The notes: generated by a model not told the origin, from the sequence alone. DNA of 64,000 bases from Candidatus Methanomethylophilaceae archaeon (GCA_944320495.1 CALUHR010000009.1:79645-143644); one strand, 5' to 3'; positions 5,153-63,330 are shown, counted from the first letter of the stretch. Numbers and translations are program-made.

Positions 5153-5782
5153 GTGGACAAGGTAGAGATGTCGCCCATCCTCCTCTCTCCCGGCAACAGG
5201 CTGGTGACGGTCTTCGGAGGGGGTAGGGTCGCCCTTCGCAAATGCCGCCATTTTGACGGATTCAGGATACGCGTGGTCTCCGAGGAGGTCATGCCCGAGC
5301 TGAGGGAGCTGGCGGAGGAGGTCCTCATCGATTCCATCGACAGGGACAACGTCCTGCGCTACATCGAGGGGTCCGACATCGTCGTGGCCGCCACGTCCGA
5401 CCACGCGCTCAACGATATGATAAGGGACACCGCTATGTCCCGGGGGATAATGACCAACTCCGCCCACGGCGGAGGGGACGTCCTAATACCATCGACCCTC
5501 CACAGGGACGGCTGGACGGTCTGCGTGTCATCCGAGGGTCGCGTCCCGGCGTTCCCACCCTATGTGATCGAGAGGATCGACGAGATGCTCGACCCATCGT
5601 ACGATGCGATGCTGGCACTGCTGGTCGACCTGAGGGTCGTCATAAGGGAGAGGATACCCACGCAGCCAGGTAGGGCGGAGTTCCTCGCAGGGGTGCTCGC
5701 AGATGAGGACGTCTGGGACCTCCTGAGGGAGGGCCGCGGCGGGGAGGCGAGGGAGCTGGCTCTCGCGAGGGGAGGTCTCCGA
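5153..5782 (+). CDS. sirC: Precorrin-2 dehydrogenase (SirC/CysG N-terminal type)
   Basis: VTVFGGGRVALRK Rossmann motif, VVAATSD, VCVSSEG; GTG 5153 chosen after TATA-like AAATATAAT; ends CTC CGA TGA (CGA 5780-5782 overlaps hemA ATG, TGA 5783-5785). Confidence 0.85.
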
Positions 5783-7023
5783 TGATAGTTAGCATGCATG
5801 TTACGCACACCTCGGCCGGAGGCACGACGGGTCTGAACGACGTCGTCCCGAGGCTGGAGGAGGAGGCGGCCAAACGTCTGCCGGGCATACAGTGGATCTC
5901 GGAGTACGTGGTGGTCCGCACCTGCAACCGTTTCGAGATTTACGCCGCCACTGGCAGCAACCTCTCGGTCAGGGAGTTCTTCGATTCGATGATCAGGACG
6001 ATAGTCCCCTCGTCGAACATCTCGTACACGCTGGACGACAGGGACAGCATCAAGCACCTCTTCAGGGTGGTCTGCGGTCTGGACTCCCTCATCGTCGGCG
6101 AGGACCAGATCCAGCATCAGGTCCGTGAGTCGTACATGAGGGCGAGAGAGGAGGGACATGTCGGAAGCATGCTCTCCCATCTGTTCGACAAGGCGATGGC
6201 CGTCGGCAAAAGGGTCAGGACCGAGACGTCCCTGAACAAGGGGGCCGTATCGGTGGGATCCGCGGCGGTGGAGCTGGCCGAGGGTCGTCTGGGGGACCTG
6301 TCCGGCAAGAGCATCACGATCCTGGGGGCGGGCGACATAGCGTCCGTCATCGCGAAGAACCTTATGGGCAAGAACCTGGGCACCGTCGTCGTCTCCAACC
6401 GTACGTACAGCCGCGCCATAGAGCTGGCGAGCGAGCTGGGCGGCAAGGCCGTCAGCATGGCCAGGATGACCGACGCCGTGGCGGACTCGGACGTTGTCCT
6501 GGTGGCCACGGGCGCACCGCACGCCGTGCTCAAGTGCAGTCATGTCAGCGAGGCCATGGCAAGGAGACCGGACCGCCCGCTGCTTGTGATCGATGTAAGC
6601 ATACCCAGGAACACCGAGGACTCGGTGTCCGGGATACCGAACGTCGACGTGGAGAACATGGACTCGCTGCAGTCCATAGCCATGAGGAACGTCGAGCGCC
6701 GCAAGTCGGAGATCGCCGCCGCCGAGAGGATCATCACGGAGGAGCTGGCGAAGATCGACTCGGAGCAGAAGGAGCAGTACGCCAACGACGTCATCAGGCG
6801 CATTGGGATCAAGCTCGCGGGCATACGCGAGCATGAGCTTGGAACCGCTAGGTCTCGTGTGGGTTCCGCCGACATGGAGGAGATCCTCGAAGACCTGTCA
6901 AGGGCGATGGTCAACAAGATCACCGCCGAGCTTTACAAGAATCTGAGGGAGGCATCCCGCGACGGCCGCATGGAGACTTGCGGCGCCGCTGTGGAGCTCT
7001 TCGGACTGGAGGATTCGGAATGA
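5782..7023 (+). CDS. hemA: Glutamyl-tRNA reductase
   Basis: TCNRFE, HLFRVVCGLDSLIVGEDQI, ILGAGDIA, SNRT motifs. Confidence 0.95.
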   Translation: MIVSMHVTHTSAGGTTGLNDVVPRLEEEAAKRLPGIQWISEYVVVRTCNRFEIYAATGSNLSVREFFDSMIRTIVPSSNISYTLDDRDSIKHLFRVVCGLDSLIVGEDQIQHQVRESYMRAREEGHVGSMLSHLFDKAMAVGKRVRTETSLNKGAVSVGSAAVELAEGRLGDLSGKSITILGAGDIASVIAKNLMGKNLGTVVVSNRTYSRAIELASELGGKAVSMARMTDAVADSDVVLVATGAPHAVLKCSHVSEAMARRPDRPLLVIDVSIPRNTEDSVSGIPNVDVENMDSLQSIAMRNVERRKSEIAAAERIITEELAKIDSEQKEQYANDVIRRIGIKLAGIREHELGTARSRVGSADMEEILEDLSRAMVNKITAELYKNLREASRDGRMETCGAAVELFGLEDSE

Positions 7024-7988
7024 TGTACCCGGAAGTTCGCCTCAGGAGGCTGAGGCAGAGTCAGAGGATGAGGGACCTGGTCTGCGAGACGCGCGTCAGC
7101 AAGGACGAGCTCATGCTCCCCATGTTCTTCGATGCGAACATCGGCGAGACGAAGTACACGGACTCCATGCCCGGCGTGCCGACCCACCCGCTCAGCGGAT
7201 ACGACGCCATCGCGTCCGGCATCCAGGACAGCGGTGTCGGGTCGGTCCTGGTCTTCGGCGTCCCATCGCACAAGGACCCCACGGGCACCGGCGCCTATGA
7301 GGAGCACGGCGTGGTCCAGAAGGCCATCGAGGGCCTCAAGGAGAACTCGGACCTGCTGGTCGCGGCCGATCTCTGCCTGTGCGAGTACACCGACCACGGT
7401 CACTGCGGGGTCCTCACGGAGGATGGGGAGGTGCTCAACGACGAGACCCTCGACCTCTACGCGAGGACCGCCGTCTCCCAGGCCCAGGCCGGTGCGGACA
7501 TGATCGCACCCAGCGGCATGATGGACGGCGAGGTCGCCGCCATCAGGCAGGCCCTGGACGACGCCGGGTTCAAGAACGTCCCCATCATGGGTTACAGCGC
7601 CAAGTTCCAGTCCGCGTTCTACGGACCGTTCCGCGACATCGCGGACTCCGCTCCCGGCAAGGGGGACCGCGCCGGATACCAGATGGCCTGGGGCAACGCC
7701 CGCGAGGCCATGAGGGAGATCGAGTTCGACATCGCCGAGGGCGCGGACATCATCATGGTCAAGCCCGCCCTGCCCTATCTGGACATAATCAGGATGGCGA
7801 GGGACCGCTACGACATGCCCATAGCCGCCTACCAGGTCTCTGGCGAGTACGCCATGATCAAGGCCGCGGCCGCCAACGGATGGATCGACGAGCAGCGCAT
7901 CATGCGCGAGTCCATCACCGCGATCAAGCGCGCCGGCGCCGACATCATAATCACCTATTTCGCCGAGGACATGGCGAGGATGCTCTGA
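7020..7988 (+). CDS. hemB: Porphobilinogen synthase
   Basis: RLRRLR, ADLCLCEYTDHGHCG, APSGMMDG, YSAKFQSAFYGPFRD, MVKPAL; ATGA overlap with hemA. Confidence 0.96.
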   Translation: MMYPEVRLRRLRQSQRMRDLVCETRVSKDELMLPMFFDANIGETKYTDSMPGVPTHPLSGYDAIASGIQDSGVGSVLVFGVPSHKDPTGTGAYEEHGVVQKAIEGLKENSDLLVAADLCLCEYTDHGHCGVLTEDGEVLNDETLDLYARTAVSQAQAGADMIAPSGMMDGEVAAIRQALDDAGFKNVPIMGYSAKFQSAFYGPFRDIADSAPGKGDRAGYQMAWGNAREAMREIEFDIAEGADIIMVKPALPYLDIIRMARDRYDMPIAAYQVSGEYAMIKAAAANGWIDEQRIMRESITAIKRAGADIIITYFAEDMARML

Positions 7989-7992
7989 TACC

Positions 7993-14251: not shown

Positions 14252-15025
14252 ATGATATTCGTCTTCTCCGGCACGGGGAACTCGTACGCGGCCGCCAAGC
14301 GCATCTCCGAAGCCATCGGCTCCGGCATGATCGACATCGCCGCGGCGGTGAGGTACAAGCGCTACACCTACGACGCCAAGGGAGAGCCCGTCGGGTTCGT
14401 GTTCCCCACCTACTACTACGGGCTCCCGCGCATGGTCCTCGAGTTCGCCAGGAACGTCACAGTCCTGAACCCCGGCAGGGTGTTCGCCGTGACCACCTGC
14501 GGGGAGGAGTCCGGAGGGGCCTGCGAGATGCTCGCCGAGGAGCTCGGCAGTCGTCTGAGGGTCGATGCATCCTACGACGTGGTCATGCCCGACAACTCCG
14601 TCTTCGCCTTCGACCCCCCGACAAAGGAGCAGGCGGAGGAGACGCTGAGGGCCGCCGACGCCGAGATCGACCGCATCATAGGGTCCATCAAGGCGGGTGA
14701 GTCGGGAGACATGTGCGCCCACAAGGGTGACAAGGACTGGAGGGAGATCTATGCGCTCTACGACGAGCAGCGCGTGACGGAGCCCTTCAGGATCACCGAC
14801 GCCTGCATCGAGTGCAGGATCTGCGAGGACATCTGCCCGGAGCAGATCATCAAGGTCTACCACAGGAAGCCGGTCTGGGACGAGGAGAAGTGCTCCCTCT
14901 GCATGGCCTGCATCCAGATGTGCCCCAAGGGGGCGATAGAGTACGGCGATGCCACGGTGAACCGCGGCAGGTACTACAACCCAATCTTCTACGAGAGGAC
15001 CATCGGGATACCGCTGAAGTACCGA
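14252..15025 (+). CDS. EFR1 family ferrodoxin (flavodoxin plus 2x[4Fe-4S])
   Basis: MIFVFSGTGNS, GFVFPTY, CIECRICEDICP, CSLCMACIQMCP; ends ...GIPLKY-CGA (15023-15025); standard-code end 15073. Confidence 0.85.
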
Positions 15026-21631: not shown

Positions 21632-24502
21632 ATGGCCTACAGGGGATCCGACGTGACGTTGCGTCGGACATTGACGCGGCTTCTCTCGGAGATGGAACCC
21701 AGGAGCGTTATGGGTGACAAGGTGGACCTCCCTGTCATGACGCTGGAGGAACTCGTCGATTACGACGGCGAGTTACGCAGGGTGGGGACGGAGATGCTGA
21801 GGAATGCTCCCCAGGATATCGGCCTGCTTCGTCTCCTCGTCAGGATCGCCATCATCTCACCTCCTAGCGATTATGATGAGGCCATCCATCAGGCGGCGTC
21901 GAACATGGCGGACAGCGATTCCCTGGCGTGGACCTACGCCTGTGGTATCGGGACCGAATCCGACGATGTCAAAGCCATCCGTCTCTTACGGTCGAATAAG
22001 GACCTGTCCGCACTGTATTCAGGAATCTGGAACAACTGCGACCTGATCGAGAAGCACTCATTCATCCGCAACCGCATCGATATGCCGGACGGAAAGGTCC
22101 GGGTAGAGGACCTATTCTCGGCCTACATCAATTCGGACGTCGTATTGGACAGACTGGTTTACCGGATGGGGATCATGTCATGTCTGACGTCTCACGGGGA
22201 TCTCGATACGGCTTTCAGAGCGGTATCACTTGTCGAGAGGCTCCACATCGAAGACACGGACCTGTTGATGAACATCATTGAATCCATACATCCGGTGACA
22301 TACGGTCTGCGGGAAGCGACTTACCTGGACGATGAGGAGGTGTTCAAACTCTGCACATTGGAGGATTTCGAAAGGGAACATTCGGCAGAATGGGCTGTAT
22401 CCACCCTCTCGTCGTGCGGATATCTGAACAAACCTTCGCCGTTCATCGCCATAGGACTTCTCAACTCGGACCTGACGGATGCCCAGATGGAACGCATAAC
22501 GTCGGCTCTGTACTTCTGTCCGGAGAAGGTGGTGATCCAGTGGCTCGACGACGGAGCGGACCCTTTGGGGCCCACATTGACCAAAGAACGCAGAAGTCTG
22601 GATCCGGAGCCAATGGATTCCCGCTCGGCAAATAGCTCGGATGAGGAGTATGTCGAATGCATATTGGACTCCAGCAATTTAGAACTGTATTATCAAAACA
22701 TTCCAGACATATTGGTGAATGCGGAGGGACGGTTCTTTGACGAATATCCCGGCGCCGATAGATCCGATGATGTGGCAGATGAGGATGGAGGGGATTCATC
22801 ACTCCGCGAGGATGAGGAGTATGTCGAATGCATATTGGACTCCAGCAATTCAGAACTGTACTGTCAAAACATTCCAGACGAACTTGTGGACGAGGAGAGG
22901 TTCCTTGACGAATATCCCGACGTCGATGGATCCGATGATGTGGCAGATGAGGATGGAGGGGATTCATCACTCCGCGAGGAGGAACTCAGGGAGGCGTATT
23001 CCGGGGATCCGATAGCTCAGTTCAATGTCGGGGTGACATCCTTGGAGGATTCGAGGTTCGATGATGCCAAGGCATGGTTCGTGATCTCATCGATACAGGA
23101 TGTGTCCGACGCACAGTTCAATCTTGCTCTGATGTATCTGGAGGGGAAAGGTATCGATGCCGATCCGAGACGCGGTGTAGGATGGATGATGGATTCGGCA
23201 CTGGGTGGGGACGTGGGCTCGTGCTCCTATCTTGGCTATCTCTACCGCGAGGATGACAGTGTGGAGGACGTTGATGGATTGACGAAATCCGATCGTTTTT
23301 CCGCAATATGGAATTGGATCGCCGCATCATACGGTGATTCGAACGCCAGTTTCAATCTCGCGGTCATGTACGAGTTCGGACTTGGGCTGGAGCAGTCCAT
23401 GGACAAAGCTGTCACCTGGTACAGGAAGGCGATATCCGATGATGTCCCCGAGGCCATGTACAATCTGGGCAACATCTACTATCTGGGGAAAGGCGTCACA
23501 CAATCCGATGAACGGGCCAGAGCTCTATACGCGAGAGCATCAAGGTTTGGCGATGTTGATGCCATGTGCAATCTGGCATCAATGGTATGGATGTCTCGTA
23601 CAGGTCCTAAAGACGAGGAGAAGGCGATTTCCCTATTCGAGAAGGCCGGAGAAATGGGCTCTGGTCTGGCCTTTCACAACCTGGGCTCGATCTACGACAG
23701 CGAAAGCGAACTGCATCATTCCAAAGAGCGTGCTGTCCAGTTCTATTTGAAGGCCATCGAACTGGGCGAGATCAATTCGATGATCAATCTGGGGATAATG
23801 TACGAACATGGTGACGGGGTGGAGGTGGACCTGTACAAAGCAGCCGATCTGTACAGAAGGGTTGCTGATGAAGGGGGTCCGGAATGCAACGACTGCAGGA
23901 GGCATCTCGCGTTCATGTATATGAGGGGGGATGGGGTGAACCAATCCACCGAGGACTGTATACGCCTGTTCGAAGAGGCCGCGGCCTTGGGTGACGAGAG
24001 GGCGATGTACAATCTCGGTGCGATATACGACAACGGGGACATCGTCGAGGAATCCATCGATACTGCGATCGAGTGGTACGAGAAGGCAATGGAGAACGGG
24101 AGCCCAGATGCGGCCAGTGTATTGGGCGACATATATCTCGAAGGCGATGGTGTGGATGAATCAGAGGACGCCGCGAACAGATTCTACGACAAAGCCAGAG
24201 AGCTGGAGATCGCAGAGACGTTCTACAAACTGGGGAACAGGTCCAGGTCAGAACGCGATATGGATTCCGCCGAACGGTACTATCGCGTATCAGCATCCAA
24301 GGGAAACAAGAGCGCGATCCGCGCACTGGAGGACCTGGGGATCACTTGGAATCAGGATCATGTTCCGTCGGAAGCAGATATGCCTCCGGATGCGATCGAT
24401 GATGCCGACCAGGCCGTTGAGATCGTTCAGAGGCCGGTGATCGCGTCATCCATGATGGTTGTAAGACCCACCCTCAGACTGCATGGGAGGATATCCGCAT
24501 GA
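21632..24502 (+). CDS. Sel1-like repeat protein with unknown N-terminal domain and acidic duplicated linker
   Basis: ~9 repeats of A.FNL..MY..G.G....D...A..WY..A in the C-terminal half. Confidence 0.85.
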   Translation: MAYRGSDVTLRRTLTRLLSEMEPRSVMGDKVDLPVMTLEELVDYDGELRRVGTEMLRNAPQDIGLLRLLVRIAIISPPSDYDEAIHQAASNMADSDSLAWTYACGIGTESDDVKAIRLLRSNKDLSALYSGIWNNCDLIEKHSFIRNRIDMPDGKVRVEDLFSAYINSDVVLDRLVYRMGIMSCLTSHGDLDTAFRAVSLVERLHIEDTDLLMNIIESIHPVTYGLREATYLDDEEVFKLCTLEDFEREHSAEWAVSTLSSCGYLNKPSPFIAIGLLNSDLTDAQMERITSALYFCPEKVVIQWLDDGADPLGPTLTKERRSLDPEPMDSRSANSSDEEYVECILDSSNLELYYQNIPDILVNAEGRFFDEYPGADRSDDVADEDGGDSSLREDEEYVECILDSSNSELYCQNIPDELVDEERFLDEYPDVDGSDDVADEDGGDSSLREEELREAYSGDPIAQFNVGVTSLEDSRFDDAKAWFVISSIQDVSDAQFNLALMYLEGKGIDADPRRGVGWMMDSALGGDVGSCSYLGYLYREDDSVEDVDGLTKSDRFSAIWNWIAASYGDSNASFNLAVMYEFGLGLEQSMDKAVTWYRKAISDDVPEAMYNLGNIYYLGKGVTQSDERARALYARASRFGDVDAMCNLASMVWMSRTGPKDEEKAISLFEKAGEMGSGLAFHNLGSIYDSESELHHSKERAVQFYLKAIELGEINSMINLGIMYEHGDGVEVDLYKAADLYRRVADEGGPECNDCRRHLAFMYMRGDGVNQSTEDCIRLFEEAAALGDERAMYNLGAIYDNGDIVEESIDTAIEWYEKAMENGSPDAASVLGDIYLEGDGVDESEDAANRFYDKARELEIAETFYKLGNRSRSERDMDSAERYYRVSASKGNKSAIRALEDLGITWNQDHVPSEADMPPDAIDDADQAVEIVQRPVIASSMMVVRPTLRLHGRISA
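22640..22978 (+). repeat. In-frame tandem duplication (171 + 168 nt) in the Sel1 gene
   Basis: Copies start at 22640 and 22811 (GATGAGGAGTATGTCGAATGC...) and both end GATTCATCACTCCGCGAG. Confidence 0.9.
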
Positions 24503-24579
24503 GATCCTCCAAGGAGAGATGTTGTGGACGCTCAATCGGCATCATCTATTCGATACTATACAGCGATATAGGGGGTGGG

Positions 24580-25677
24580 ATGGACTCGAGAGGAAAAAGG
24601 GAGGTGCTGGAGGGACTTTATGGCCCGATGTCCAGATCCATCAGGAAAATGCGGGGGCTCAGACCGGGCAAAGGGACAGTGGAGCTCCTCGATTTGCCGA
24701 TGCTGACATTCCTCCAGTGGATCAAGGATTACGGCAACTGCAGTGCGGAATGCAGGATCATCCCAAGCAACGACAAGTACGGACTTGCGGCGACGTTCGA
24801 AGACATCCAGGTCGATGTTGGGAACTTCAGGAGAAGGGGACAGGCATATGATGACGATCAACCTGAGGATGACATCCTCCTTCCAGTATTCGTCGGTGAC
24901 GAACTCCAACGCTTCTTGAAAGATGACGACGGCCTCCGGTGCCCGGTCCTGCATGGCCATCCGATGTGCATCGTGGACTTCAGTCAGCTGTTGCCTTACC
25001 GTTTCACTGAGGATGCGAAGTCCGGCATATCGCCTCACACCCTTGAACCAGGGACCATTTGGATGAGGGCAGAGAGCATCCTGGAAAAGACCCTGAGTCT
25101 CATATGGCTGACATCAATGATCGATTTCGATGGAGACCGGGAGTTGCTAAGACTGGGATGCCCCGTATTGTCATCAAATCCGCCCCCTCCGAAGCAATAC
25201 GATGTGGAATCCAAGGTGGTGATAATATTCGGGTCCATAGGTAGCTTGGATTCCGAGTACTACAACCTGAAAGGTAATGACAAGTTCGGTCATCTGGATG
25301 CTAACGGACTGAACAACACATACGTCTTCGAACATGATGGCATGCACATCCGTCATTACAGGGTCCTGAGCGACGATCCCCGGAATTTGAATAGTCATGA
25401 TCTCAACGGGAGCATCGGAGAGAGGGTCCTACCAAATATGCTGAAAGATGCCAGAGACACCGATGAGATCGGTGTGAAGAGAACAGTCGTCGTCATAGGC
25501 CGCACGGACGTCGAGGTTGCGCTGTGGATCATGAAGCAATGCGATTCCCTGGGGCTGACATACGATACGGCACGTAATCTGGACGAGGGAGGCAAAATGA
25601 GCCTGTTCTTCCTCAAGTGCTCTCAACTCTTCGAGAGGGAGAGATCGCTCTCCGGAGTCGATGGTCCGACCCTTCGA
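24580..25677 (+). CDS. Hypothetical protein
   Basis: ATG 24580 after GGGGGTGGG; ends CTT CGA TGA (TGA at 25678-25680). Confidence 0.6.
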
Positions 25678-41720: not shown

Positions 41721-42865
41721 CGCAGCTCCCTCCTGACCTCGTCGAGGAGCTCGTCCGCCAGGCTCGTCTTGCCCAGCAGTCCGTATGCCGACGAGAACAT
41801 CACAGCCCCCGTCCGGATCCTTCCGCCAGTGCGGTGGTTCATATGGAACTCTATCTTCTCGACAAGGAGCTTCGAGACCTCGGGGATCAGCCCCTCCCTG
41901 TCGATCACGTCCAGGGCGTCGTCCGTGGATATGCACCCCATGATCTCCCTGACGCAGTCCATCGACGCTCCCGCAATCGCCGCGTTGGCGGCGAGGATCT
42001 CCATCCTGGCATCGGCGTTGCGCGAATGCGTGTTCATGATGCCGCCGGCGAGCTTGACCATCTTGCCCAGATTGGATACGAGGACGATGTCCACGCCCAG
42101 CTCCACCGCGCAGTCGAGCATCTCGCCGACGAAGTTGCTGCATTTGACGGCGAACTCGGGGTCGATCCCGTCGATCCCCTCGGAGAAGTCCCTGCCGTAA
42201 TTGCCAGGCACAACCAGCAGAACCTTGTTGCCGTCGGCGGCGCGCACCCTCATCTCGGTGCGGATAGTCTCCACCAGGGCGGTCTCGCTCATCGGCTCCA
42301 CTATGCCGCTCGTCCCGAGGATGGAGATCCCCCCCTCGATTCCGAGGCGGGGGTTGAACGTCCTCTCCGCAATCTCCGTTCCAGCCGGGACGGATATGAC
42401 CGCCCTCAGGCCCCCGGTGTATCCCATCGCGGATGACACGTCCTCCAGGGCCTCGCGGATCATGGACCTCGGGACGCGGTTTATGGCGGCGTTGCCAGGC
42501 GGCTGGTCGAGCCCCTTGCGGGTCACCCTTCCGACCCCGACTCCGCCGTCTATCTCGATCCCCTCGGGGATCATGGACACCTCAGAATAGACGAGAGCAC
42601 CGTGGGTGGCGTCGATGTCGTCGCCGCCGTCCTTCCTGACGGCACAGGATGCCGTTTCCCCATCGATCCTGAGGTCCTCGACGGGCAGGTCCAGGACTAT
42701 GCCCTTGGGGGTCGTGATGCTGACCGTCTCCACGGGAGTTCCCAGGAGCGCCATCGCCGCCGCCTTGCTGGCAGCGGTCGCGCAGGTCCCGGTGGTGTGG
42801 CCCCTTCTAAGACGCTTGTTGTTCACATAGACGTACATCTCGTCGGGTCTGGGGCCTAGGGTCAT
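41720..42865 (-). CDS. cbiD: Cobalt-precorrin-5B C1-methyltransferase
   Basis: LRRGHTTGTCATAA, KDGGDDIDATHG, TFNPRLGIEGGISILGTSG; ends RREL-CGA sharing its A with the cbiG ATG; standard-code end 41669. Confidence 0.93.
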
Positions 42866-43665: not shown

Positions 43666-44417
43666 TCTCGTTCATCGGAGCCGGACCCGGGGACCCGGAG
43701 CTCATCACAATAAAGGGAAAGAGGCTTATCGAGCAGGCAGACGTAATCATCTACGCCGGATCGCTGGTCAACCCGGACGTTCTGGAGGGCCACAAGGCCG
43801 GCGCGGAGATCTACAACAGCGCCCTGATGGACCTCGACGAGGTCATCGCCGTCATGGAGAAGGCCGAGAGGGAGGGCAGGAAGGTCGTGCGCGTGCACAC
43901 CGGGGACCCCGCCATCTACGGCGCCCACAGGGAGCAGATGGACAGGCTCGACGAGCTCGGGATAACCTACGAGGTCATCCCCGGCGTGTCCTCCGCCTTC
44001 GCCACCGCGGCCGCCCTAAACGCGGAGTACACGCTCCCCGGGAGGAGCCAGACCGTCATATTCACCAGGATGGAGGGGAGGACCCCCATGCCGGAGCGCG
44101 AGAAGCTCCCGGACCTGGCGAGACACCACGCCACCATGGTCATCTTCCTGTCCATCGGATTCATGGACGAGATGGCCAGACAGCTCCAGGAAGGCGGATA
44201 CGAGCCCACCACGCCCGTCGCCGTGGTCTACAAGGCGTCCTGGCCGGACCAGAGGATCGTCCGCGGGACCCTGCAGGACATCGCCCAGAAGGTCAAGGAT
44301 GCGGGCATCACGAAGACCGCCCTGACGGTCGTCGGCGAGTTCCTCTGCGAGGACCACGAGCTCTCCAAGCTCTACGACAAGCACTTCACAACCGAGTTCC
44401 GCAAGGCGAAGGAGTGA
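43662..44417 (+). CDS. cbiF: Cobalt-precorrin-4 C11-methyltransferase
   Basis: FIGAGPGDPELIT, YAGSLV, RVHTGDPAIYGA, PGVSS. Confidence 0.94.
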   Translation: MISFIGAGPGDPELITIKGKRLIEQADVIIYAGSLVNPDVLEGHKAGAEIYNSALMDLDEVIAVMEKAEREGRKVVRVHTGDPAIYGAHREQMDRLDELGITYEVIPGVSSAFATAAALNAEYTLPGRSQTVIFTRMEGRTPMPEREKLPDLARHHATMVIFLSIGFMDEMARQLQEGGYEPTTPVAVVYKASWPDQRIVRGTLQDIAQKVKDAGITKTALTVVGEFLCEDHELSKLYDKHFTTEFRKAKE

Positions 44418-44422
44418 TCCGG

Positions 44423-45172
44423 ATGGCGAAGGGAAGGCTACACGTGGTCGGGTTCGGACCCGGCGGGAAGGACGACATGACGTTCCGCGCCGCGCGTGTC
44501 ATAGAGAACGCCGACGTGGTCACCGGATACACGACGTACATCAATCTCCTGAGGCCGATCTTCCCGGACAAGGTCTACAAGGCCACCGGGATGATGAAGG
44601 AGGTCGAGCGCTGCAGGATGGCCATAGAGGACGCCGTGTCCGGGAAGGACGTGGCGATGGTATCATCCGGAGACTCCGGCATCTACGGCATGGCGGGGAT
44701 CATCTATCAGCTGGCGGACGAGATGGGCGCCGACATCGAGATCGACACCGTCCCCGGCATCACCGCCGCATCGTCTGCCGCATCCATCCTGGGCGCACCG
44801 CTGATGCACGATCTGGTCATCGTCAGCCTGTCGGACCTGATGACGCCCCTGGACCTGATCATGGACAGGGTCGGGAAGGCGGCCGAGGGCGACTTCATCA
44901 CATGCATCTACAATCCCAAGAGCAAGACCAGGACCGAGTACCTGGGCATGGCGAGGGACATCCTTCTGAAGCACCGCTCGCCGGAGACCCCGGTCGGCAT
45001 CGTCAGGAACGCCGGCAGGGAGGACCAATCGAGCAAGGTCACCACCCTGGGCGGTCTCGACCCCGCGGACGTGGACATGTTCTGCATCGTGATCGTCGGG
45101 AACTCGCAGACGTACGTGTCCAACGGCCGCATGATCACACCCAGGGGCTACAGGATCCAGGGAGGCGAGCGA
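44423..45172 (+). CDS. cbiH: Cobalt-precorrin-3B C17-methyltransferase
   Basis: VVGFGPG, SSGDSGIYGMAG, PLMHD, SLSDLMTP, YNPKSK, TPRGY; ends IQGGE-CGA (45170-45172); standard-code end 45355. Confidence 0.93.
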
Positions 45173-45173
45173 T

Positions 45174-47673: not shown

Positions 47674-48230
47674 GGGAGATAACGATCGAGGACATACCGT
47701 TCCTCACGCCGATAGGCAAGGGTCAGCTCGGGGTGGACTACATCTCCGACGAGGACTTCGAGAAGGCCATCTCCGATCCGGGGCAGTTCTGTCTCATCCC
47801 CGTCGTGGACGGCGTCCCCTCTGGATTCGCCATATGCAAGGAGTTCGGCCCCGAGTCCGAGCCCGAGGCGCTGGCGCTCCCAGATTCTGGATACAGGGAC
47901 TGGGTCAGGTCCAGGAGCAGGATCGGCCTGGTGGACTCCGTCGCCCTGTCCCCGTCGGTCGGCGGAAGGGGGATCGGCAAGGCCCTCTGCGAGGCCTGTC
48001 TGGAGAGGTTCTCCGAGGACGGGTGCGATTCCGCGGTGTCGATGGCGTGGGTCCATGAGGACGGCGTCGAGCCCATCAGGAAGGCGCTCACGCAGTCCGG
48101 TTTCGAGAGGACCGACCTCGTCATACGCGGCTACTGGAACTCCTGGGTCGACACCGAGGGGGGACACATGTGCCCCTACTGCGGCTCGCCGTGCAGGTGC
48201 TCCGGAGCCCTGTGGCGGAGATCGCTCTGA
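47670..48230 (+). CDS. GNAT-like acetyltransferase with C-terminal Cys motif
   Basis: DSVAL...GGRGIGKAL motif A; CPYCGSPCRC; GTGA overlap with upstream gene. Confidence 0.75.
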   Translation: MREITIEDIPFLTPIGKGQLGVDYISDEDFEKAISDPGQFCLIPVVDGVPSGFAICKEFGPESEPEALALPDSGYRDWVRSRSRIGLVDSVALSPSVGGRGIGKALCEACLERFSEDGCDSAVSMAWVHEDGVEPIRKALTQSGFERTDLVIRGYWNSWVDTEGGHMCPYCGSPCRCSGALWRRSL

Positions 48231-49142
48231 CACCCTGGCCGACAGCCATGCGCCGATGTCGGCATAGACCTCGTCGCGGTTGGTCTCGTTCATCAGCTCG
48301 TGCCTCGCACCATCGTAGAGCTTCATCTCGGGGTGCAGGCCCGCCTTCTCCAGGAGCCTTCTGGCCTTCTCGACGCCCTTCCCGTCGTCGCCGACCGGAT
48401 CCTTCGATCCGGACAGCAGGATGACCGGGAGGCCCTTCGGGATCCTATCGATGTCCTGACCGCTCACATCCTTTCTGATGAGCGTGAAAAGGTCCCTGTA
48501 GCCGGAAACGGTGAATTTGAAGCTACAGAACGGGTCCGAGTTGTATGCCTCGATGGCCGCAGGGTCACGGGAGAGCCAGCGATTCCTCATGTCAGGCTCC
48601 CTGAACCTCTTGTCGTAGTTCTCAAGCACCATCCTGTTCAGCATGGGGCTGACGTAACGGGGCCCCTTCATCCTGACCAGGGTCTGGGCCAGGAATCTGG
48701 CGAATCCGACCACTGCAGGGGGCTGGTTGCCAGTGCCCACCAGGATGACGCCGTCGACCATGTCGCCGTAGCGGGTGATGTAGCGTCTGACCACATAGGA
48801 GCCCATGCTGTGGCCGAGGATGAAATGTGGTACGCCCGGGTGATCGGAGTCGATGCGCTGGGTCACCAGGTACAGGTCCTCCACGAGATGCTCGTCCCCG
48901 TCGGATTCGGCGATGGTGCCGTGGTCGTCGGGGCTCGTCCTCCCGTGTCCCAGATGGTCGTGCCCTATGACCGCGATGCCGAGGACGTTGAGATGGAGTG
49001 CCAGCGGTTCGTATCTGGCTATGTGCTCTATCATGCCGTGGGCGATCTGCAGTGTGGCTATCGGGGATTCGGGGGACCATTCCATGCAGTGGAGGTCAGT
49101 TCCGACGACCGATGACGGGACGGTGAACTCACGGAGGGACAT
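48222..49142 (-). CDS. Alpha/beta hydrolase (lysophospholipase family)
   Basis: IAHGMIEH, GHDHLGHG, GHSMGS, SGSKDPVG, ARHELMNE; ends ARVSE-CGA (48224-48222); standard-code ORF runs on to 46479. Confidence 0.9.
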
Positions 49143-49262
49143 GGTGGATACCATGATATGCACACTTAAAAACGGCATCAGGGAAGCTTCGTGTCCGGAC
49201 GAAGCATCGGTGTTACGAATTGTTATCAAAATATTAATATCGTCATAACCGTAGCCGAGGCC

Positions 49263-50036
49263 ATGCGCAGGATAGCCGTCTACGGCAAGGGCGGGATAGG
49301 GAAATCGACCACCGTGGGCAACGTCTCCGCGGCGATGGCGGAGTCGGGCCTCAGGGTGATGCAGATCGGCTGCGATCCCAAGGCCGATTCCACCCGTGCC
49401 GTGGCCGGCAGGGCGATACCTACCGTTCTGGACAAGATCCGCGACGATCCCGATGCGGAGCTCGGGGACCTGGTCCACGAGGGCCGCGGGGGAGTTCTCT
49501 GCGTCGAGTGCGGCGGACCCCGTCCGGGCCGTGGATGCGCCGGCAGAGGGATCATAGCCGCGTTCGAGAAGCTGGAGGAGCTGGACGCAATCGGCACCTA
49601 CCATCCGGACGTCATCCTCTATGACGTTCTCGGTGACGTGGTGTGCGGTGGGTTCGCCATGCCCATCCGCAACGGCTACGCCCGCGACGTGTTCGTGGTG
49701 ACATCCGGGGAGATGATGTCACTCTACGCGGCCAGCAACATCGCCGGGGCGGTGGCGGACATGAGGAACGAGGGATACGCCAGGCTGGGCGGGCTGATCC
49801 AGAACTCCCGCGGCGTGAGGGACGAGGACTCGCTCGTCGACCGCGCCGCGTCGGAGATGGGCGTGCCCGTAATCATGAGGCTCCCCAGGGACCCGTCCGT
49901 CCAGAGGTGCGAGGAGGCCGTCACCACGGTCGTATCGGGGGAGCCCGACTCGCCCATGGCCTCGAACTACAGGGAGCTGGCCAAACGCATCCTCTCGGCA
50001 TCCGAGGACGTCGAGGGCGGTATGAGACTGGAGCGA
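49263..50036 (+). CDS. cfbC: Ni-sirohydrochlorin a,c-diamide reductive cyclase ATPase subunit (NifH-like)
   Basis: [44 protein letters not shown]; CGA 50034-50036, TGA at 50045. Confidence 0.85.
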
Positions 50037-50041: not shown

Positions 50042-50827
50042 ATGAAGACTGGGATTCTTATTGGCGGGCACGGTTCGACGATGTCGTTCAACAAGGGCGT
50101 GCTCGATATGCAGGCCGACAGACTGAGGGCGAAGGGCTACGACAACGTCTACGTGGGGTTCAACGAGACCTCCTTCCCGTCGCTGGCCGAGGCGGCCACC
50201 GAGATGGTCAGGGACGGATACGACCGCATCGTCATCCTCCCGTTCTTCGTCGCATCCGGCCTACACATCACCAGGGACTTCCCCATGAAGCACTTCGGGC
50301 TCCCGAGGGACGCCACGGACGGCGTCTGGGAGTGCGAGGGCAGGGAGGTCGCCATCCACATCGAGCAGCCCTTCGGCGACGAGCCCCTCCTCGGGGAGAT
50401 CCTGGCGGAGAGGGTCGAGGAGCTCCGCACGCCCGGGAAGAGAACGGCCATCATCGTCATGGGTCACGGCTCGAGGCTGGAGTACAACAGGAACGTGGTC
50501 AACCTCAACGCGGACAGGCTCAGGGCCAAGGGCTACGACATGGTGTACATAGGGTTCAACGAGTTCGACGAGCCCAAGATCGAGGACGTCATACCCGGGA
50601 TCATCGACGACGGCGCCGAGGAGATCATCGCCCTGCCGCTGTTCATCTCGCTCGGCAAGCATCTGACCATGGACGTACCCGCGAAGCTCGGCATCGAGAA
50701 CTTCTCGGACGGCGGGATCGTCCACCGCGACGGGAGGGACGTCGAGGTCAAGTACGCCCAGCCCGTCGGCGCCGACCCCAGGCTCTGCGACGTGCTCGTG
50801 GAGAAGCTCCGGAGGCTCGGACTGCGA
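50042..50827 (+). CDS. cfbA: Tandem-domain CbiX/CfbA sirohydrochlorin chelatase
   Basis: Two CbiX halves ([17 protein letters not shown]; [18 protein letters not shown]); ends CTG CGA TGA. Confidence 0.82.
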
Positions 50828-52038: not shown

Positions 52039-53105
52039 GGACGGTCATCCATCCCCGCCCGAGCCCGATCGTCGCGGCGATGTACACCCTGCGCGACATG
52101 GACGTCGACGTCATCGTCGTGCACGGCCCGGCCGGATGCAGCTTCATGGCGTCCCGCCCGCTGGAGGACGCCGACATCAGGGTGGTGACCTCCGCCATGA
52201 GGGACAGCGACCTCATCTTCGGGGCGTCGGACCAGCTCGTGGACACCCTGAGGCAGGTGGAGGAGAGGTTCCATCCCTCCACCGTCGCCGTCATAGGAAC
52301 ATGTGCGAGCATGATCATCGGCGAGGACATGGGCAGCTCCATCAGGAAGGCGGGGATAGACGCGAACGTCTTCCCCGTGGACGTCCACGCCTGCATGGGC
52401 GACAACACCCGCGGGGCCATCAAGGCCCTGGAGGCCGGCAGGGACGCGGGGATCATCGACCCCGAAGAATGCGACCGCCAGATATCGCTGATGAAGGCCG
52501 CCACGCGTCTCGAGAAGAACGTGGGGATGGCCTCCAAGGACTACATCCGCCCGGCCACCAGCCCGACCAAGATGCACGTGTGCAGGCGCATAATGGACGT
52601 GCTCTCGTCCGGAGGCAGGGTCGCCGTGGTGATGGACGCCAAGAAGGAGCTCGCATACCGCTTCGCGGACATGTTCGAGGCGGTGGACCGCGCCAGGGGG
52701 AGGCTCGGAGGCGAGACGCTGTTCGTGGCGAACCTGGACGGGTCCAAGGGACTGCCGAGGATCAGGGGCTACTGCAGCGAGATCCTCTCGGACCTGGGAT
52801 CAAAAGGCGTCTCCATCGACGAGATCGTCGGAGGGCTCGACGAGTACTCCGTCGTCGGCGAGGAGATGCGCTCCAGGATCGATGCGTTCTCACCCGACCT
52901 CACCATCGTCCTCGGGATATGCCATGCGATCCCGGGGATCTCCGCCGACGACATCCTGATCACGGACCAGCCGAGGCAGCTGGCCAACTACCTCAACATG
53001 GGATGCGAGTGGGCGGTCGGGGAGATATCGTCCCATACGATGGTCATGGGAGCCCATTCGATCGTCCCGATGGAGACGGCCGACACCCTGAGGGAGATGC
53101 TGTGA
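52035..53105 (+). CDS. cfbD: Ni-sirohydrochlorin a,c-diamide reductive cyclase catalytic subunit
   Basis: HPRPSPIVAAMYTLRD, HGPAGC, GTCASMIIGED, AKKELAY. Confidence 0.92.
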   Translation: MRTVIHPRPSPIVAAMYTLRDMDVDVIVVHGPAGCSFMASRPLEDADIRVVTSAMRDSDLIFGASDQLVDTLRQVEERFHPSTVAVIGTCASMIIGEDMGSSIRKAGIDANVFPVDVHACMGDNTRGAIKALEAGRDAGIIDPEECDRQISLMKAATRLEKNVGMASKDYIRPATSPTKMHVCRRIMDVLSSGGRVAVVMDAKKELAYRFADMFEAVDRARGRLGGETLFVANLDGSKGLPRIRGYCSEILSDLGSKGVSIDEIVGGLDEYSVVGEEMRSRIDAFSPDLTIVLGICHAIPGISADDILITDQPRQLANYLNMGCEWAVGEISSHTMVMGAHSIVPMETADTLREML

Positions 53106-54445
53106 GAGGTGTCGTCATAGCCGGCACCGGCAGCGGGGTCGGCAAGACTTCCATCGCGACGGGGCTGATGTCCCGTCTCTCCAAGGTCCGCAGGGTCCAG
53201 GCCTTCAAGGCCGGTCCAGATTTCATAGACCCGATGTACCACACGGCGGCCACCGGCAGGCCGTGCAGGAACCTGGACTCGTTCCTGATGGACGACGACA
53301 CGCTGAGGAACCTGGCGGGATACGCCTCGCGCGACGCCGACCTCTGCGTGGTGGAGGGTGTCCGCGGTCTGTACGAGGGCTTCTCCGGCGACGGCGACAT
53401 CGGGTCCACGGCGTACACCGCCAAGCTGCTGGGGTTCCCGGTGATCCTCGTGGTGGACGCACGCTCTCTCACGCGCAGCGCGGCCGCCGTCGTGAGGGGG
53501 TTCAGGTCGTTCGACCCCGACGTCAGGATCGCGGGCGTGATCCTCAACAACGTCTCCGGGGAGCAGCATGCGGGGAAGCTCCGCACGGCGTTCGAGACCT
53601 ACTGTTCGGACGTCAGGCTCGTCGGGATGATACCGAAGAGCCCGGGGAAGGCCCTTGAGCAAAGGTACCTCGGGCTCCGCACGCTCAGGACGTTCGCCGA
53701 GCGCGAGATAACGCCGCTCCAGGAGCTCACAGAGCCGATAGACCTGGACGCGGTCCTCGACATAGCGGAATCCGTGGACGTCGACCTTCCGGACGGGTCC
53801 CCGTATGCGGAGAGGGACTGCGGCCTGAGGGCGGCCGTCCCCATGGACGAGGCGTTCTGCTTCTACTACTGCGAGAACATCGAGTGCCTGGAGGCCTCCG
53901 GATTCAGGGTGGAGACCTTCCGCCCGACGGACGGGGATCCCCTCCCGGACGCGGACCTGTACTATCTCGGCGGGGGATATCCCGAGCTCCACGCCTCCGA
54001 CATATCGGCGAACAGGGATTTCCTGGAGGGTCTGGGCACCGCTGCCGCCGACGGGAAGGCGATAATAGGCGAATGCGGCGGTCTCATGGCGATGTGCCGC
54101 TCCATCGAGGACAAGGACGGGAACGTCCACCCGATGTCCGGGGTCTTCGATGCCGAGGCGAGGATGACCGGCGTCCGTCACGGACCGACGTACGTCGTGG
54201 CCGAGGCGACAAAGGGCAATCCGATGTTCGCCGGGACGGTCCGCGGGCACGAGTACCACTATTCGGACGTCTTCCCCTCGGAGGATGCCAGTTTCGGGTT
54301 CGAGGTCCACAGGGGACGGGGTATCGCGGGCTGTCGGGACGGTCTCGTCAGAGGCAATGCCATAGGCTCCTACATGCACCAGCACGCCCTCTCGGAGAGG
54401 GACTGGATCGGCACGGCGGTCGAACGCATCGTAAACGGCCGTCGA
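53102..54445 (+). CDS. cfbB: Ni-sirohydrochlorin a,c-diamide synthase
   Basis: SGVGKT, FKAGPDFIDP, EGVRGLYEG, GGYPE, GHEYHY, GSYMHQH; ends RIVNGR-CGA; standard-code end 54508. Confidence 0.88.
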
Positions 54446-55918: not shown

Positions 55919-56548
55919 TCGCTCGCCGCCGAGACCCTTGTAGTACGAGCCGTACGTGTAGAGGGCTCCGACGGGGTTGTGGGCCAGGACCCTGTCCTTG
56001 GTCACCAGGGTAGTGACGGGGGCCTCCGAGTTCCTGTAGAACAGGCTGTCGTGGCCGACGCAGAGGCCGACGAGGATGTTCAGGTCCGTCTTCTGGGCGT
56101 TGAGCATCTTCGCCTGCAGGACAGGGTTGCAGGTGTAGTAGCCGACATCGCAGCACTCCTCCCCGATCCCCACGTCCTCCTTGGGGACCATACCGGCCTT
56201 GCACGAGATGCCGAAGACCTCGAACCCGTTGCTCCTGAGTATGGACGCCAGGGTCCTGGACTCCGAGATCAGGCCGATGCAGGTCGCTATCCCGATCCTG
56301 CGGTATCCCATGCGCCTGGCGAACTCCATGGTCTCCCTGACGCGGCACCAGCGCATGTACCCCTCGTGCTCCACCTCGGCGGCCGCCTTTAGGATCCTGC
56401 CCTCCTCCGTGTCCCCGTAATGCTCCAGGGCCTCGCTCCTGAGGTCCTCGGGCATGGAGTCCGTGAGGCAGAACTGGGGGCGCTTCCCTCCGACGATGTC
56501 GCATCCCTTCATCGCGCAGTCTACGCATGAGCGCTGGTTCTCGGACAT
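55919..56548 (-). CDS. DUF1847 family Cys-rich protein
   Basis: GIATCIGL, CKAG, CNPVLQA, GLCVGHDSLF, KDRVLAHNP; ends YYKGLGGE-CGA; standard-code end 55862. Confidence 0.85.
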
Positions 56549-57175: not shown

Positions 57176-57235
57176 CCCCTCCCGTATCGGTGAGGCCGGC
57201 GGACCATTATTATCGTGCGAGGCCATGACCTCCGC

Positions 57236-58039
57236 ATGGCATTCGATGGAAGGGCGGGAATCGTCGACATCGACGAGGATGAGAGGACCGTCATTTTCGA
57301 CACCTACAGGCTCAAGAAGATCACCGGCACGAGGGTCGCTCCGATCCTGGGGATGAGCGACTTCGCCACTCCCTTCAAAGTGGCCTGCGAGATGGCCGGC
57401 CTGTATCCCGGAGACAAGCCGAACAAGTACATCGAGGCAGGGAACATCCTCGAGCCCGTGATCCGCGGGTACGTCGCCAAGGGCTGCGACGCCCTCGTGA
57501 GGCCCCAGCTCGGCATCCCCGCCGGGGAGAGGATCGGCGTCGAGGAGCCGGTCGAGAAGGAGCTCTGCGGGTACGACCACTTCCACAACGAGCCGATCTT
57601 CGGAGGCATGGTGGACGGGTACATCGTGGTCGAGGGGAGGCGCTCGGCAATCCTCGAGATCAAGACCGCCTCCGACCGCACCAAGTGGGAGGACGGGGAG
57701 GGCGGTTACACCAACGTCCCGATGAACTACATGCTCCAGGCGTCCCTGTACGCGAAGCTGTCCAATCTGGACAAGATCGTCTTCGCCGTCGGATTCCTGG
57801 AGGAGCCCGACTACGACCGCCCCAAGCAGTGGGTACCCGCCCCGGAGAACACGTACATCGTCGTCAAGGACAGGCTGGACATGGACGACTACATGCAGAG
57901 ATGCGTGGACTGGTACAACGAGTACATGAAGGGCGGCTACACGCCGGAATGGTCCGACTCCGAGGACGACCAGATGGTCCTCAAGTACCTCAAGGCCTAC
58001 AAGCCCGGTCAGAACAAGAAGAGGAACGGGAGGCGCCGA
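57236..58039 (+). CDS. YqaJ-like PD-(D/E)XK nuclease
   Basis: ITGTRVAPILGMSDF.TP, GGMVDG, ILEIKT, Y.LQ..LY; ends KKRNGRR-CGA 2 nt before the next ATG; standard-code end 58135. Confidence 0.78.
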
Positions 58040-58041
58040 GG

Positions 58042-58545
58042 ATGGACGCGATCTTCACGAGGAGGAGCGTCAGGGACTTCACCGACGAGAGGGTCTCCGA
58101 GCGGGACATCGAGAAGCTGCTCGACGCCGCCATGAGCGCCCCCTCGGCGAGGAACCAGCAGGCCTGGGAGTTCGTCGTCGTGGACGATCCGGAGGTCATC
58201 GGCACCCTGTCCGAGGCCTCCCCGTACGCCAAGACCGTCGGGAGGGCACCGCTCTGCATCGTGCCGCTGGGAGTGTCCGAGGACATGACGGTCCCCCAGA
58301 TGTGGCAGCAGGACATGGGCGCGGCGACCGAGAACATCCTGCTCATGGCCGCGTCCCTCGGTCTCGGGACGTGCTGGATCGGCATCGCACCGATCGAGGA
58401 GAGGATGGACGCCGTCCGCAGGGCCGTGGGCTGTCCCCAGGACAGGCTCCCGTTCTGCCTCATAGCGGTGGGGCATCCTAAGCAGCCCCTGGAGGAGCGC
58501 CCTGGCCGCATGATGCCGGACAGGGTGCACCGCAACAGGTACCGA
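58042..58545 (+). CDS. Nitroreductase family protein
   Basis: IFTRRSVRDF, APSARNQQAWEF, LGLGTCWIG; ends RVHRNRY-CGA; standard-code end TAG 58560. Confidence 0.9.
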
Positions 58546-58547
58546 CG

Positions 58548-59675
58548 TCGGAGCAGGTAGTATACGGCAGCCAGGAGGACCACCATCAGGACGTTGGTGG
58601 CCGTGAACAGTGCCAGATATACCTTCATGTCCGCACCCTCCGTGCGGGCGTAGAATCCGAGGGAGATCATGCTGGCCATGGAGGCTATCGGCGTCCCGAA
58701 GCCTCCTATGTCGACCCCGACCAGCAGGCCCTGCCAGTCCCCGGTGAATCCGGACAGCAGGGTCGCGGCCGGGACGTTGCTGATGACCTGGCTCATCGCG
58801 AGGGACGTCATCATCGGATCCCACGACATCATGCCCTCAAGGGTCCCCCTCACCACGTCGAGCTGGGCGATGTTGCCGGTGAAGACGAACAGGCATACGA
58901 ATGTCAGGAGCAGACCGTAGTCCACACCCTTCAGGATCGAGCGCCTGGTCACGACTATCGCGGCAACCGTGACCAGCAGCACGGCCTCCCAGGGGATCAC
59001 GCGCAGGACGCAGAGGACGCACAGCACGAACAGCACGCCCATCAGTGCCAGCAGTCCGCGGTTCCTCACGTCGCGTTCCCTGCTTATGTCCACGTGGACC
59101 TCCCTGCCACTGAAGGGCAGGCACATGGCGCAGAGGACCAGCCCGCCCACGACGACGTAGGGTGCCAGCAGGAGGACGAACTCGCCCGTGTCCAGAGCGT
59201 AGCGGGAGTGGATGTACAGGTTCTGGGGGTTCCCGAACGGGAGGAGCATGCTGCCGAGGTTCGCGGCGAGGGTCTGGAGGACGACGACCGGGAGGATGCT
59301 GCGCGTCTCGCCCGCCATCCCCAGCACGAGTATCGTGAACGGCACGAACGTGATGAGGGCGACGTCGTTGGTGATCAGCATCGAGCAGAAGAACGGCAGC
59401 ATGACGAGGATCAGGCTGAGCATCCGCAGGCTGCGCCTGCCCGCGAGCAGTCTCCCCGCCAGGGCGCCGAAGAGGTGGCACTCCTTCATGCCGGCGACCA
59501 CCGCCATGAAGCAGAACAGGATGCCGAGCGTGCGGACGTCGATGTATCCGATGTAATCGGACGACGGCGGGACGATCGCCATGGAGGCCACCGCCAGCAC
59601 GGCCGAAGTCACAAGGACGACGTTGCGGTGCAGGAATGCCGACACCCTCGTGCGTGCGTCCTCCGTTCCGTCCAT
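58548..59675 (-). CDS. SLC13/ArsB-NhaD family anion permease
   Basis: SMLITNDVAL, ANLGSMLLPFGNPQNL, SQVISNVPA, GGFGTPIASMAS; ends VYYLL-CGA; standard-code end 57990. Confidence 0.85.
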
Positions 59676-59764
59676 GCCCGCAGTCAGAATGAGGCCCGTA
59701 TATCATGGTTGGGCGGACGGACCTCTTATCTACGAGGTGGTGCATCCCTGTTCACGGTGTTAAC

Positions 59765-59944: not shown

Positions 59945-59981
59945 TTCCATGGCCCGGGCGACCCCCGGGTCTGAAACATCT

Positions 59982-62080: not shown

Positions 62081-62082
62081 CG

Positions 62083-63330
62083 TCGCACCTCCCCGGGCGA
62101 CAGGTCGGCCGACCTCACGACCAGCCTCATCGCCCATGGCGGGACCTCGTGGTCCATGTAGCGGTCGTCGCAGAAGACGAACGCCGTCCTGTATGCGGGG
62201 CGTCTCTCAGGGAACGTCCCCTTCCCGTCCGTGAAGTACATCAGCCCCCGTAGGTTCCCGAAGGTCCCGTCCTCGACCAGCGAGTCCACGTACTCGAAGA
62301 CGGGGCGGAAGTTGGTGCCGCCGCCCCCTATGAGGCGGAATCCGTCCATCAGTCTGCGGAGGTCCGTCTCGCTCCTGACCACGTCGTCCGAGCGGACCTC
62401 GTCGTCGCATTGGATGATGTGGAGGTTCGACCGGCCTCCGAACCCGGCCTGCCTCAGGGCCGAGTAGGCCTCCTCGAGGAACGCGACCACCGGTCCGCGC
62501 ATCGTCGATCCCGAGGTGTCCACGGCTATCACGAACTCGTCCACGCGAGGTCTGTCGGAGGATTCGAGCGAGTCTATGAGCGGGATGTTCCCGTAGGCGC
62601 GGAGCCCGTAGGTGTAGTAGATCGGGTCGAACTCGTCGATGTTCTCCCTCACGTCGGGTCTGGCGGACACGAACCTGCGCAGGAACGAGCGGTAGTCGTA
62701 GCGTCTGCGGTTCCTGATCCTGAGTATCGGCAGGATCCCGCCCGCCGACGGGTCGTTGCGCACTACGAACCCCTCCAGCTCGGTCATCGCCTGCTGGGCG
62801 AGGTCGCGCCATCCCGCCGTGTCTGCTTCCGCGTGGGCGGTGTCGTCGTCGACCGTGAACAGCTTCCCATAGAGTCCGGACTGCCATTCCGACAGGTCCG
62901 ATACGGCAGCTGCCACGAGGTCCGGGGCGGGGGCACCGGCGCGTTTGAAGATCTTCTCGCATGCGTACATCCGGTCGTCGCGCCCCCTGACGGACGTGTG
63001 GGGCGTGTCCATGGTGTCCAGGACGTACTCGACGATCATGTCCTCGGCCAGGAGCCTGGATGCGGGTGCGGACGGGTCCGTGTGCCCCAGCAGGCAGTGG
63101 AAGACGCAGTGGGCCAGCTGCCTGGTCACCATGTTGCGCTCCTCGCGGTAGTCGGAGATGACGGAGTCGCGGCGGAACCTCACGGTCGAACCGTCGCACT
63201 CCGGGAGACCCGTCCCGGGGACGATCTCGCGTCTCAGCGAGAACACCGCCATGGTCATGAAGCGCATGTCCAGGCACAGGCCGTTCGCCGCTGAGGAGAC
63301 GATCTCCGCGGCGAGCTCGTCGGCATCCAT
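62083..63330 (-). CDS. DUF2201-type metallopeptidase-like + vWA protein
   Basis: HCVFHCLLGH, IAVDTSGS (MIDAS), IQCD, GGGGTNF, YFTDG; ends SPGEV-CGA-CGA, the second CGA overlapping the MoxR ATG; standard-code end 61843. Confidence 0.85.

Follow-up and report, generated by a model that had tools for sequence, protein, structure and literature searches.

The stretch of DNA analysed here, 64,000 nucleotides in length and hereafter called the window, comes from Candidatus Methanomethylophilaceae archaeon (GCA_944320495.1, CALUHR010000009.1:79645-143644; G000:C9:79645-143644 in our numbering). The host genome comprises 1.77 Mb on 14 contigs with a guanine-cytosine (GC) content of 62%. Its relatives are Methanomethylophilaceae; the nearest one with a name is 'Candidatus Methanoprimaticola sp. 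MG2', whose release factor aRF1 shares 91% identity with the one encoded here. The window holds genes for corrinoid and F430 biosynthesis, two ABC exporters and a VirD4-like gene. According to an original prediction, the arginine codon CGA stands at the ends of 20 of the window genes and terminates translation there. An in-frame CGA was found at all 20 coordinates, each at most 2 bases off (read as TCG on the plus strand for minus-strand genes). Judged from the sequence analyses described below, CGA very probably serves as a fourth stop signal in this gut methanogen, used by about a quarter of its genes.

Genes were delimited with a self-trained codon-usage model in which CGA was added to TGA, TAA and TAG as a stop. 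In the window this four-stop model yielded 59 compact genes, 19 of them with a CGA end (one of these CGA lies left of the window), and gene starts are located 2 to 40 bases past the preceding end or overlap it by one base. The gene of ABC exporter 1 (CGA at 33793) was dropped by the overlap rule, a hypothetical gene with CGA at 25675 was not called, and the genes at 21632-25680 were missed by the codon model. With ABC exporter 1 and this hypothetical gene added, all 20 sites are covered and CGA ends about 20 of 60 window genes.

Seventeen of the 20 sites are informative. At the remaining three (5780, 25675 and 50825) the standard stop TGA comes directly after CGA, so these sites say nothing when taken alone. 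They belong to three plus-strand genes, a sirC-like gene for an NAD-binding protein (5126..5782, CGA 5780-5782), the hypothetical gene (24499..25677, CGA 25675-25677) and the CbiX-type chelatase gene cfbA (50042..50827). In cfbA, the CGA at 50825-50827 is part of a CGATGA in which ATG is the start of the next gene.

Among the informative sites on the plus strand, the distance from CGA to the next standard stop is 15 codons in a 4Fe-4S ferredoxin-domain gene (14252..15025, CGA 15023-15025; EFR1 in the original prediction), 20 in the gene of a cfbB-like amidase (53102..54445, CGA 54443-54445), 60 in a cbiH-like tetrapyrrole methylase gene (44414..45172, CGA 45170-45172), where the next gene starts at 45174, and 95 in a transglutaminase-like gene (31208..31942, CGA 31940-31942), whose tail contains 6 further CGA. 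Read-through of the CGA at 27449-27451, which ends a small gene without Pfam match (26972..27451, previously taken for YbjN), would give an in-frame fusion to the VirD4/TraG-like gene at 27479-28918 (488 codons). The other plus-strand cases are the NifH-like cfbC (49263..50036, CGA 50034-50036), a YqaJ-like gene (57236..58039, CGA 58037-58039) followed by a start at 58042, and the gene beginning there (58042..58545, CGA 58543-58545), which the original prediction labelled a nitroreductase.

On the minus strand, the tail measures 16 codons in a gene without Pfam match (25674..26882, CGA 25674-25676, previously LPD1), 151 in ABC exporter 1 (33793..35550, CGA 33793-33795), where it overlaps the gene of ABC exporter 2 (31980..33899, CGA 31980-31982), and 185 in a CitMHS-type permease gene (58548..59675, CGA 58548-58550). 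The longest tail, 580 codons, follows an alpha/beta hydrolase gene (48222..49229, CGA 48222-48224) and runs antisense to two plus-strand genes. The CGA of cbiD (41720..42865, CGA 41720-41722) shares one base with the start of the next gene, and that of a VWA-like (DUF2201) gene (62083..63333, CGA 62083-62085) is followed by a start at 62080. A CbiA/CobB-type amidase gene (37343..38713, CGA 37343-37345) and a DUF1847 gene (55919..56548, CGA 55919-55921) complete the set.

The proteins that end at CGA hold complete domains according to Pfam. CGA is missing from the 3193 Pfam-matched codons of 10 long open reading frames (ORFs) delimited by the standard code, yet occurs 81 times in their leaders and tails.

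Syntenic DNA from five congeners was used to compare end positions, with frames cut at all four codons. The end of a window gene at CGA and that of its ortholog at TGA were at most 3 codons apart in 11 of 12 pairs, the outlier being a paralog, and the spread of end positions in these pairs equals that of 26 TGA/TGA pairs. The CGA/TGA pairs cover the sites 5780, 15023, 31980, 33793, 41720, 45170 and 62083. For ABC exporter 2, four orthologs end at offset 0, two with TGA (G004, G006) and two with CGA (G009, G010). The orthologs in G009 end with TGA at offset -2 for the ferredoxin-domain gene, -1 for cbiD and 0 for the tetrapyrrole methylase, and with CGA at offset +7 for the CbiA/CobB-type amidase. 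The TGA of the VWA-like ortholog in G001 lies at offset -2, and the TGA of the sirC-like ortholog in G010 aligns one codon later. The reverse case, TGA in the window gene and CGA in the ortholog, was seen too. In a protein alignment of ABC exporter 1 with seven congeners, a standard stop is located at the same place in five and CGA in G010 and G012; no internal CGA was found in any of these eight sequences. Homologs of the hydrolase end at residue 329-334 of the 335-residue query, and their open frames comprise 297-385 amino acids compared with 1079 here. The gene for aRF1 itself ends with AAC-TGA-GGT in this genome and with AAC-CGA-GGT in the relative UBA480.

The same separation between gene interiors and gene ends holds genome-wide. 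In selected stop-to-stop ORFs of the whole genome, 5 of 722 in-frame CGA (0.7%) are flanked on both sides by coding-like sequence; among the other sense codons the lowest share is that of CAA with 22.7%, and CGG reaches 38%. CGA is the sole codon of the 61 sense codons that is shut out of coding interiors, to a degree far above what chance could produce. As a trinucleotide it is abundant, with 97,784 instances on both strands, or 27.6 per 1000 versus 18.2 expected from base composition, and it is plentiful out of frame within genes. At the 1608 gene ends of the four-stop model we counted 1145 TGA, 388 CGA (24%), 52 TAA and 23 TAG. Sequence past a CGA end is as non-coding as sequence past TGA (coding score of the following 30 codons -1.00 and -0.96, respectively) and is still coding-like in 1.8% of cases. 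Between a CGA end and the next standard stop lie 24.5 codons in the median, which fits unselected sequence of 62% GC, and 142 tails of at least 50 codons exist genome-wide. CGA ends also have a sequence context: the following (+4) base is T in 55%, compared with 23% for all CGA, with TC after 26% and TG after 22% of ends, and there are 44 one-base CGATG stop/start overlaps. Two further features fit a weaker, leaky terminator, a mild enrichment of standard stops within 10 codons (30.7% past CGA versus 22.7% past TGA) and lower codon-usage scores of genes with a CGA end (0.30 versus 0.37 with a TGA end). The same pattern was found in sister genomes, in independent assemblies from many studies. 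Codon statistics and the agreement with the stop positions of orthologs thus lend good support to the prediction that CGA ends translation.

Several observations weigh against this reading. Genes were called with a codon-usage model of our own making, which is noisy on small samples. Self-training on 31-100 kb of high-GC DNA does not give reliable codon models: the G009 sample was trained on wrong frames, and a 100-kb sample of the present genome gave 19 apparent internal CGA instead of the 5 found genome-wide, so that per-genome figures from small samples are rough. Moreover, C or G follows 37% of the CGA ends, as it does at sense CGA sites, and context alone can therefore not account for the choice between stop and sense. 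CGA also retains sense use. Five CGA in the genome are truly internal, all with C or G as the next base: Arg88 of aRF1, Arg31 of ribosomal protein L18e, the linker between GmhA and GmhB, one in a flavodoxin-like gene and one in a membrane protein. The aRF1 Arg88 codon is the only CGA in its gene. Of the 35 closest genomes, 33 share this CGA, and 28 of 29 distant homologs have Arg at position 88. Other arginines of aRF1 are equally invariant, namely Arg60, 160 and 172 (AGG) and Arg196 (CGT). Arg31 of L18e is encoded by CGA in 30 of 30 family genomes (G000:C13:191824-191826; L158 520-530). GmhA (a sugar isomerase) and GmhB (a HAD phosphatase) share one frame in which they are joined by CGA (G000:C13:193648-194700; L161/L223), and this linker codon is CGA in 9 of 11 congeners.

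Some of these codons were followed further. In other clades of the order the aRF1 gene keeps a single CGA at Arg21 or Arg35, not at Arg88 (L047, L048, L060, L063, L042, L049-L058, L070, L077-L089), and in several of these clades it is nearly the sole CGA among about 4000-5000 conserved codons around the gene. In L18e, conservation extends to the nucleotides: TGG-CGA-GAY (Trp-Arg31-Asp) is kept by each of the 30 family genomes and by about 20 of 24 outgroups from other families of the class (L163-L222), although CGA is rare or absent elsewhere. The L18e codon was rejected as a clade-specific signal on account of these outgroups; it is ancient and unconnected to the code change. Since L18e Arg31 needs CGA to be read as Arg, tRNA-Arg(UCG) cannot be lost. 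A stop between two separate genes was considered for GmhA and GmhB and rejected, because one congener has AGA at this position and no start codon follows. Read-through would yield the fusion and termination GmhA alone, making two products possible. An apparent internal CGA beside aRF1 was discarded as well, the minus-strand ORF that carries it being an antisense shadow. A first homology screen of 80 aRF1 loci had overcounted sense CGA, through nucleotide similarity of leaders and tails between close relatives and through shadow or off-frame ORFs that align; the counts around aRF1 were therefore filtered by the depth of distant matches. A further lineage-specific sense CGA was noticed in one congener (L234, G011:C63), as the codon for Arg in the 'DRD' motif of GmhB.

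The decoding apparatus provides the remaining points on this side. A gene for tRNA-Arg(UCG) with anticodon TCG and identity base A20 is kept at G000:C13:413317-413390 and conserved across the family, and CGA is decodable because of it; the proposal that the codon was freed did not hold. Nor did the proposed relaxed recognition by aRF1 find support. The NIKS and YxCxxxF motifs are intact, and no substitution in the codon-recognition motifs separates CGA-terminating genomes from others. The sole change in the GTS region (G38S) was rejected as the cause, as it was seen in no other genome, CGA-terminating relatives included, and the substitutions D27 and V120, considered as clade-specific candidates, do not track the trait cleanly. 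Genes of the eRF1 fold are limited to aRF1 and Pelota in this genome, and a domain search of the genome for a horizontally acquired bacterial-type release factor or ArfB found none. Pair 31-39 of the anticodon stem of tRNA-Arg(UCG) is mismatched (A.A or C.A) in the three copies from this genus, whereas it is mostly standard in 12 from other genera (one, from G056, has U.G; in another, from G068, the opposite end of the stem is mismatched). Three properties of a stop codon were hence found for CGA, absence from interiors, position at orthologs' stops and non-coding sequence downstream; the cognate tRNA, which should be absent, is present. Neither tRNA loss nor a release-factor change, the marks of organellar-type codon capture, was found: the tRNA is kept and the aRF1 motifs are unchanged across the clade. 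The prediction of CGA as a terminator is thus well supported for its role as an end signal but not in the sense of a pure stop, given the conserved Arg codons in aRF1, L18e and the GmhA-GmhB linker.

Whatever the mechanism, it has to tell the reading frame, and this points to the ribosome as the site of decoding. Probably, CGA is an in-frame terminator that the ribosome reads beside the main stop TGA and the rarer TAA, with aRF1 competing against a weakened tRNA. In such a mechanism aRF1, the sole class-I release factor, would terminate at CGA, which differs from UGA by its first base only, and it would win there because the competing tRNA-Arg(UCG), with its 31-39 mismatch in the genus, is weak or scarce. 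Termination would probably be somewhat leaky and dependent on context, consistent with U after 55% of the ends and C or G after the five sense CGA. The tRNA would be retained for the few essential genes that need CGA as Arg, such as aRF1 (Arg88) and L18e (Arg31).

A more elaborate possibility, which we put forward only tentatively, is a dual meaning of CGA, with stop by aRF1 as the default and Arg inserted at a few conserved, C- or G-followed sites by a deliberately weakened tRNA-Arg(UCG). The CGA at aRF1 Arg88 might then close a feedback loop that balances the levels of release factor and tRNA, as an archaeal counterpart of prfB autoregulation. In bacteria, the gene for RF2 (prfB) is autoregulated through an in-frame UGA inside it. 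The likeness is that a release-factor gene holds an apparent terminator codon at a conserved site. Unlike prfB, the aRF1 gene has no frameshift signal, and passing codon 88 would need tRNA-Arg(UCG).

The main rival, which we regard as unlikely, is stalling followed by rescue. Here CGA would be recognised by no release factor and decoded poorly, and the chain would be freed via Pelota/ABCE1 and peptidyl-tRNA hydrolase with the same outcome as termination. The unchanged recognition motifs of aRF1, the presence of Pelota, the weakened anticodon stem in the genus and the lower codon-usage score of CGA-ended genes would all suit it. It would demand costly quality control for a quarter of the genes, those of F430 and corrinoid biosynthesis included. 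The existence of a cognate tRNA also speaks against it. The CGATG overlaps resemble ordinary coupling of termination and reinitiation, and the strong preference for U at +4 is reminiscent of the way in which context affects release factors; both point away from rescue.

Editing of C to U in the mRNA, by which the ribosome would meet an ordinary UGA, has a precedent in plant organelles, where CGA-to-UGA editing creates stops. The swap of CGA and TGA at the same position among orthologs and the CGAU context common to about half of the sites agree with it. A deaminase is blind to the reading frame, so in view of the abundant out-of-frame CGA, above expectation in number, site-specific guides would be needed for about 390 sites; U context is missing at 45% of the sites, the sense CGA in aRF1, L18e and GmhA-GmhB would have to escape, and to our knowledge mRNA editing is not known in archaea. 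We consider it very unlikely. It is just as hard to credit that CGA is always Arg, with genes running to the next standard stop and their tails tolerated or trimmed. The presence of tRNA-Arg(UCG), the CGA at conserved Arg positions of a few genes and the mild enrichment of standard stops shortly past CGA speak for this, but it gives no account of the purge from interiors together with the build-up exactly at orthologs' stop positions, and the tails, which reach 580 codons, pass antisense or out of frame across neighbouring genes, carry no coding signal and are not conserved. An artefact of assembly or sequencing, TGA misread as CGA, has a negligible probability. Nothing was found in its favour, the effect is frame-specific in dozens of assemblies from unrelated projects, and misreading cannot produce depletion of CGA in interiors.

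Per-genus distributions were estimated roughly, from samples of 100 kb. In genera g1, g14, g15, g16 and g22, low-GC ones included, hardly any CGA stands in coding context, whereas g10, g11 and another family use it normally as a rare sense codon, at about 1 per 1000. Only in the high-GC genus are CGA ends frequent, with 24% here, 27% in G001, 18% in G010 and 7% in G008; around aRF1 they occur in several high-GC lineages and in none of the low-GC ones. This suggests an order of events in which the sense use of CGA was lost first and drift from TGA to CGA under GC pressure came second. Several genera of the family would thus have given up CGA as a sense codon, and GC pressure (62% GC in this genome) would then have driven TGA to CGA at stops. 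Several public contigs with a Methanomethylophilaceae aRF1 are filed as bacteria (Ruminococcus, Bifidobacteriaceae, Lachnospiraceae, Prevotella, Dialister and others; L011, L013, L014, L026, L027, L030, L031, L054, L086, L089) and are probably mis-binned or mislabelled archaeal contigs.

Changes from sense to stop are documented in organelles, for AGA/AGG in vertebrate mitochondria, UCA in Scenedesmus and UUA in thraustochytrids (NCBI tables 2, 22, 23), with green-algal cases described in PMC6821328. As in these codes, a sense codon has vanished from interiors and marks gene ends. Organellar genomes are tiny and have usually lost the cognate tRNA, whereas the present case concerns the main genome, of about 1600 genes, in a free-living archaeon that has kept the tRNA and a few sense uses. 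For two hydrothermal-vent archaeal assemblies in which CGG encodes Trp, CGA as a stop was raised only as a question, and no tRNA-Arg(UCG) was found (bioRxiv 10.64898/2026.04.02.715157). They share with our genome the lack of CGA in recognisable protein domains; they differ in lineage and in their balanced GC content, and here tRNA-Arg(UCG) is present, CGA aligns to orthologs' stops and CGG is a sense codon. Code 34, in which TAG encodes pyrrolysine, was described for Methanomethylophilus and relatives without mention of CGA (bioRxiv 10.1101/2024.09.30.615893); it belongs to the same family and is a stop-to-sense change, opposite in direction to the CGA case. The 23 TAG ends among the 1608 genes are coding-like downstream in 43% of cases, and their scarcity fits TAG as pyrrolysine as reported for Methanomethylophilaceae. 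With TAG hardly used as a stop, TGA is left as nearly the sole standard stop.

The literature search yielded no publication of CGA termination for Methanomethylophilaceae or Methanomassiliicoccales. In the literature searched, code changes in bacteria and archaea are all stop-to-sense changes or amino acid swaps, those from sense to terminator are documented only in organelles, and a sense-to-stop change is not established for any free-living organism. The Codetta study detected no reassignment in archaea, with a count of 0 for sense codons of unexpected meaning (Table 2, PMC8629427). According to the KACI preprint, direct inference of stop codons is beyond both Codetta and KACI (bioRxiv 10.64898/2026.04.02.715157), so screens of this type are blind to sense-to-stop changes. 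If true, the present case would be a living "ambiguous intermediate", with a quarter of the genes ending in CGA while the cognate tRNA survives, and the route to a new stop codon would become testable. Standard gene callers would then give hundreds of proteins per genome with false C-terminal tails, fusions and overlaps, and protein databases of gut and rumen methanogens would be affected.

Two features of the window lie outside this subject. The segment 21632-28918, possibly an integrated mobile element, has a lower GC content (0.57) and carries an ORF of 956 amino acids, ORFs without Pfam match and, at 27479-28918, the gene of the VirD4/TraG-type coupling protein. Close to the end of the window, a tRNA-Ala(CGC) gene is located at 63817-63893.

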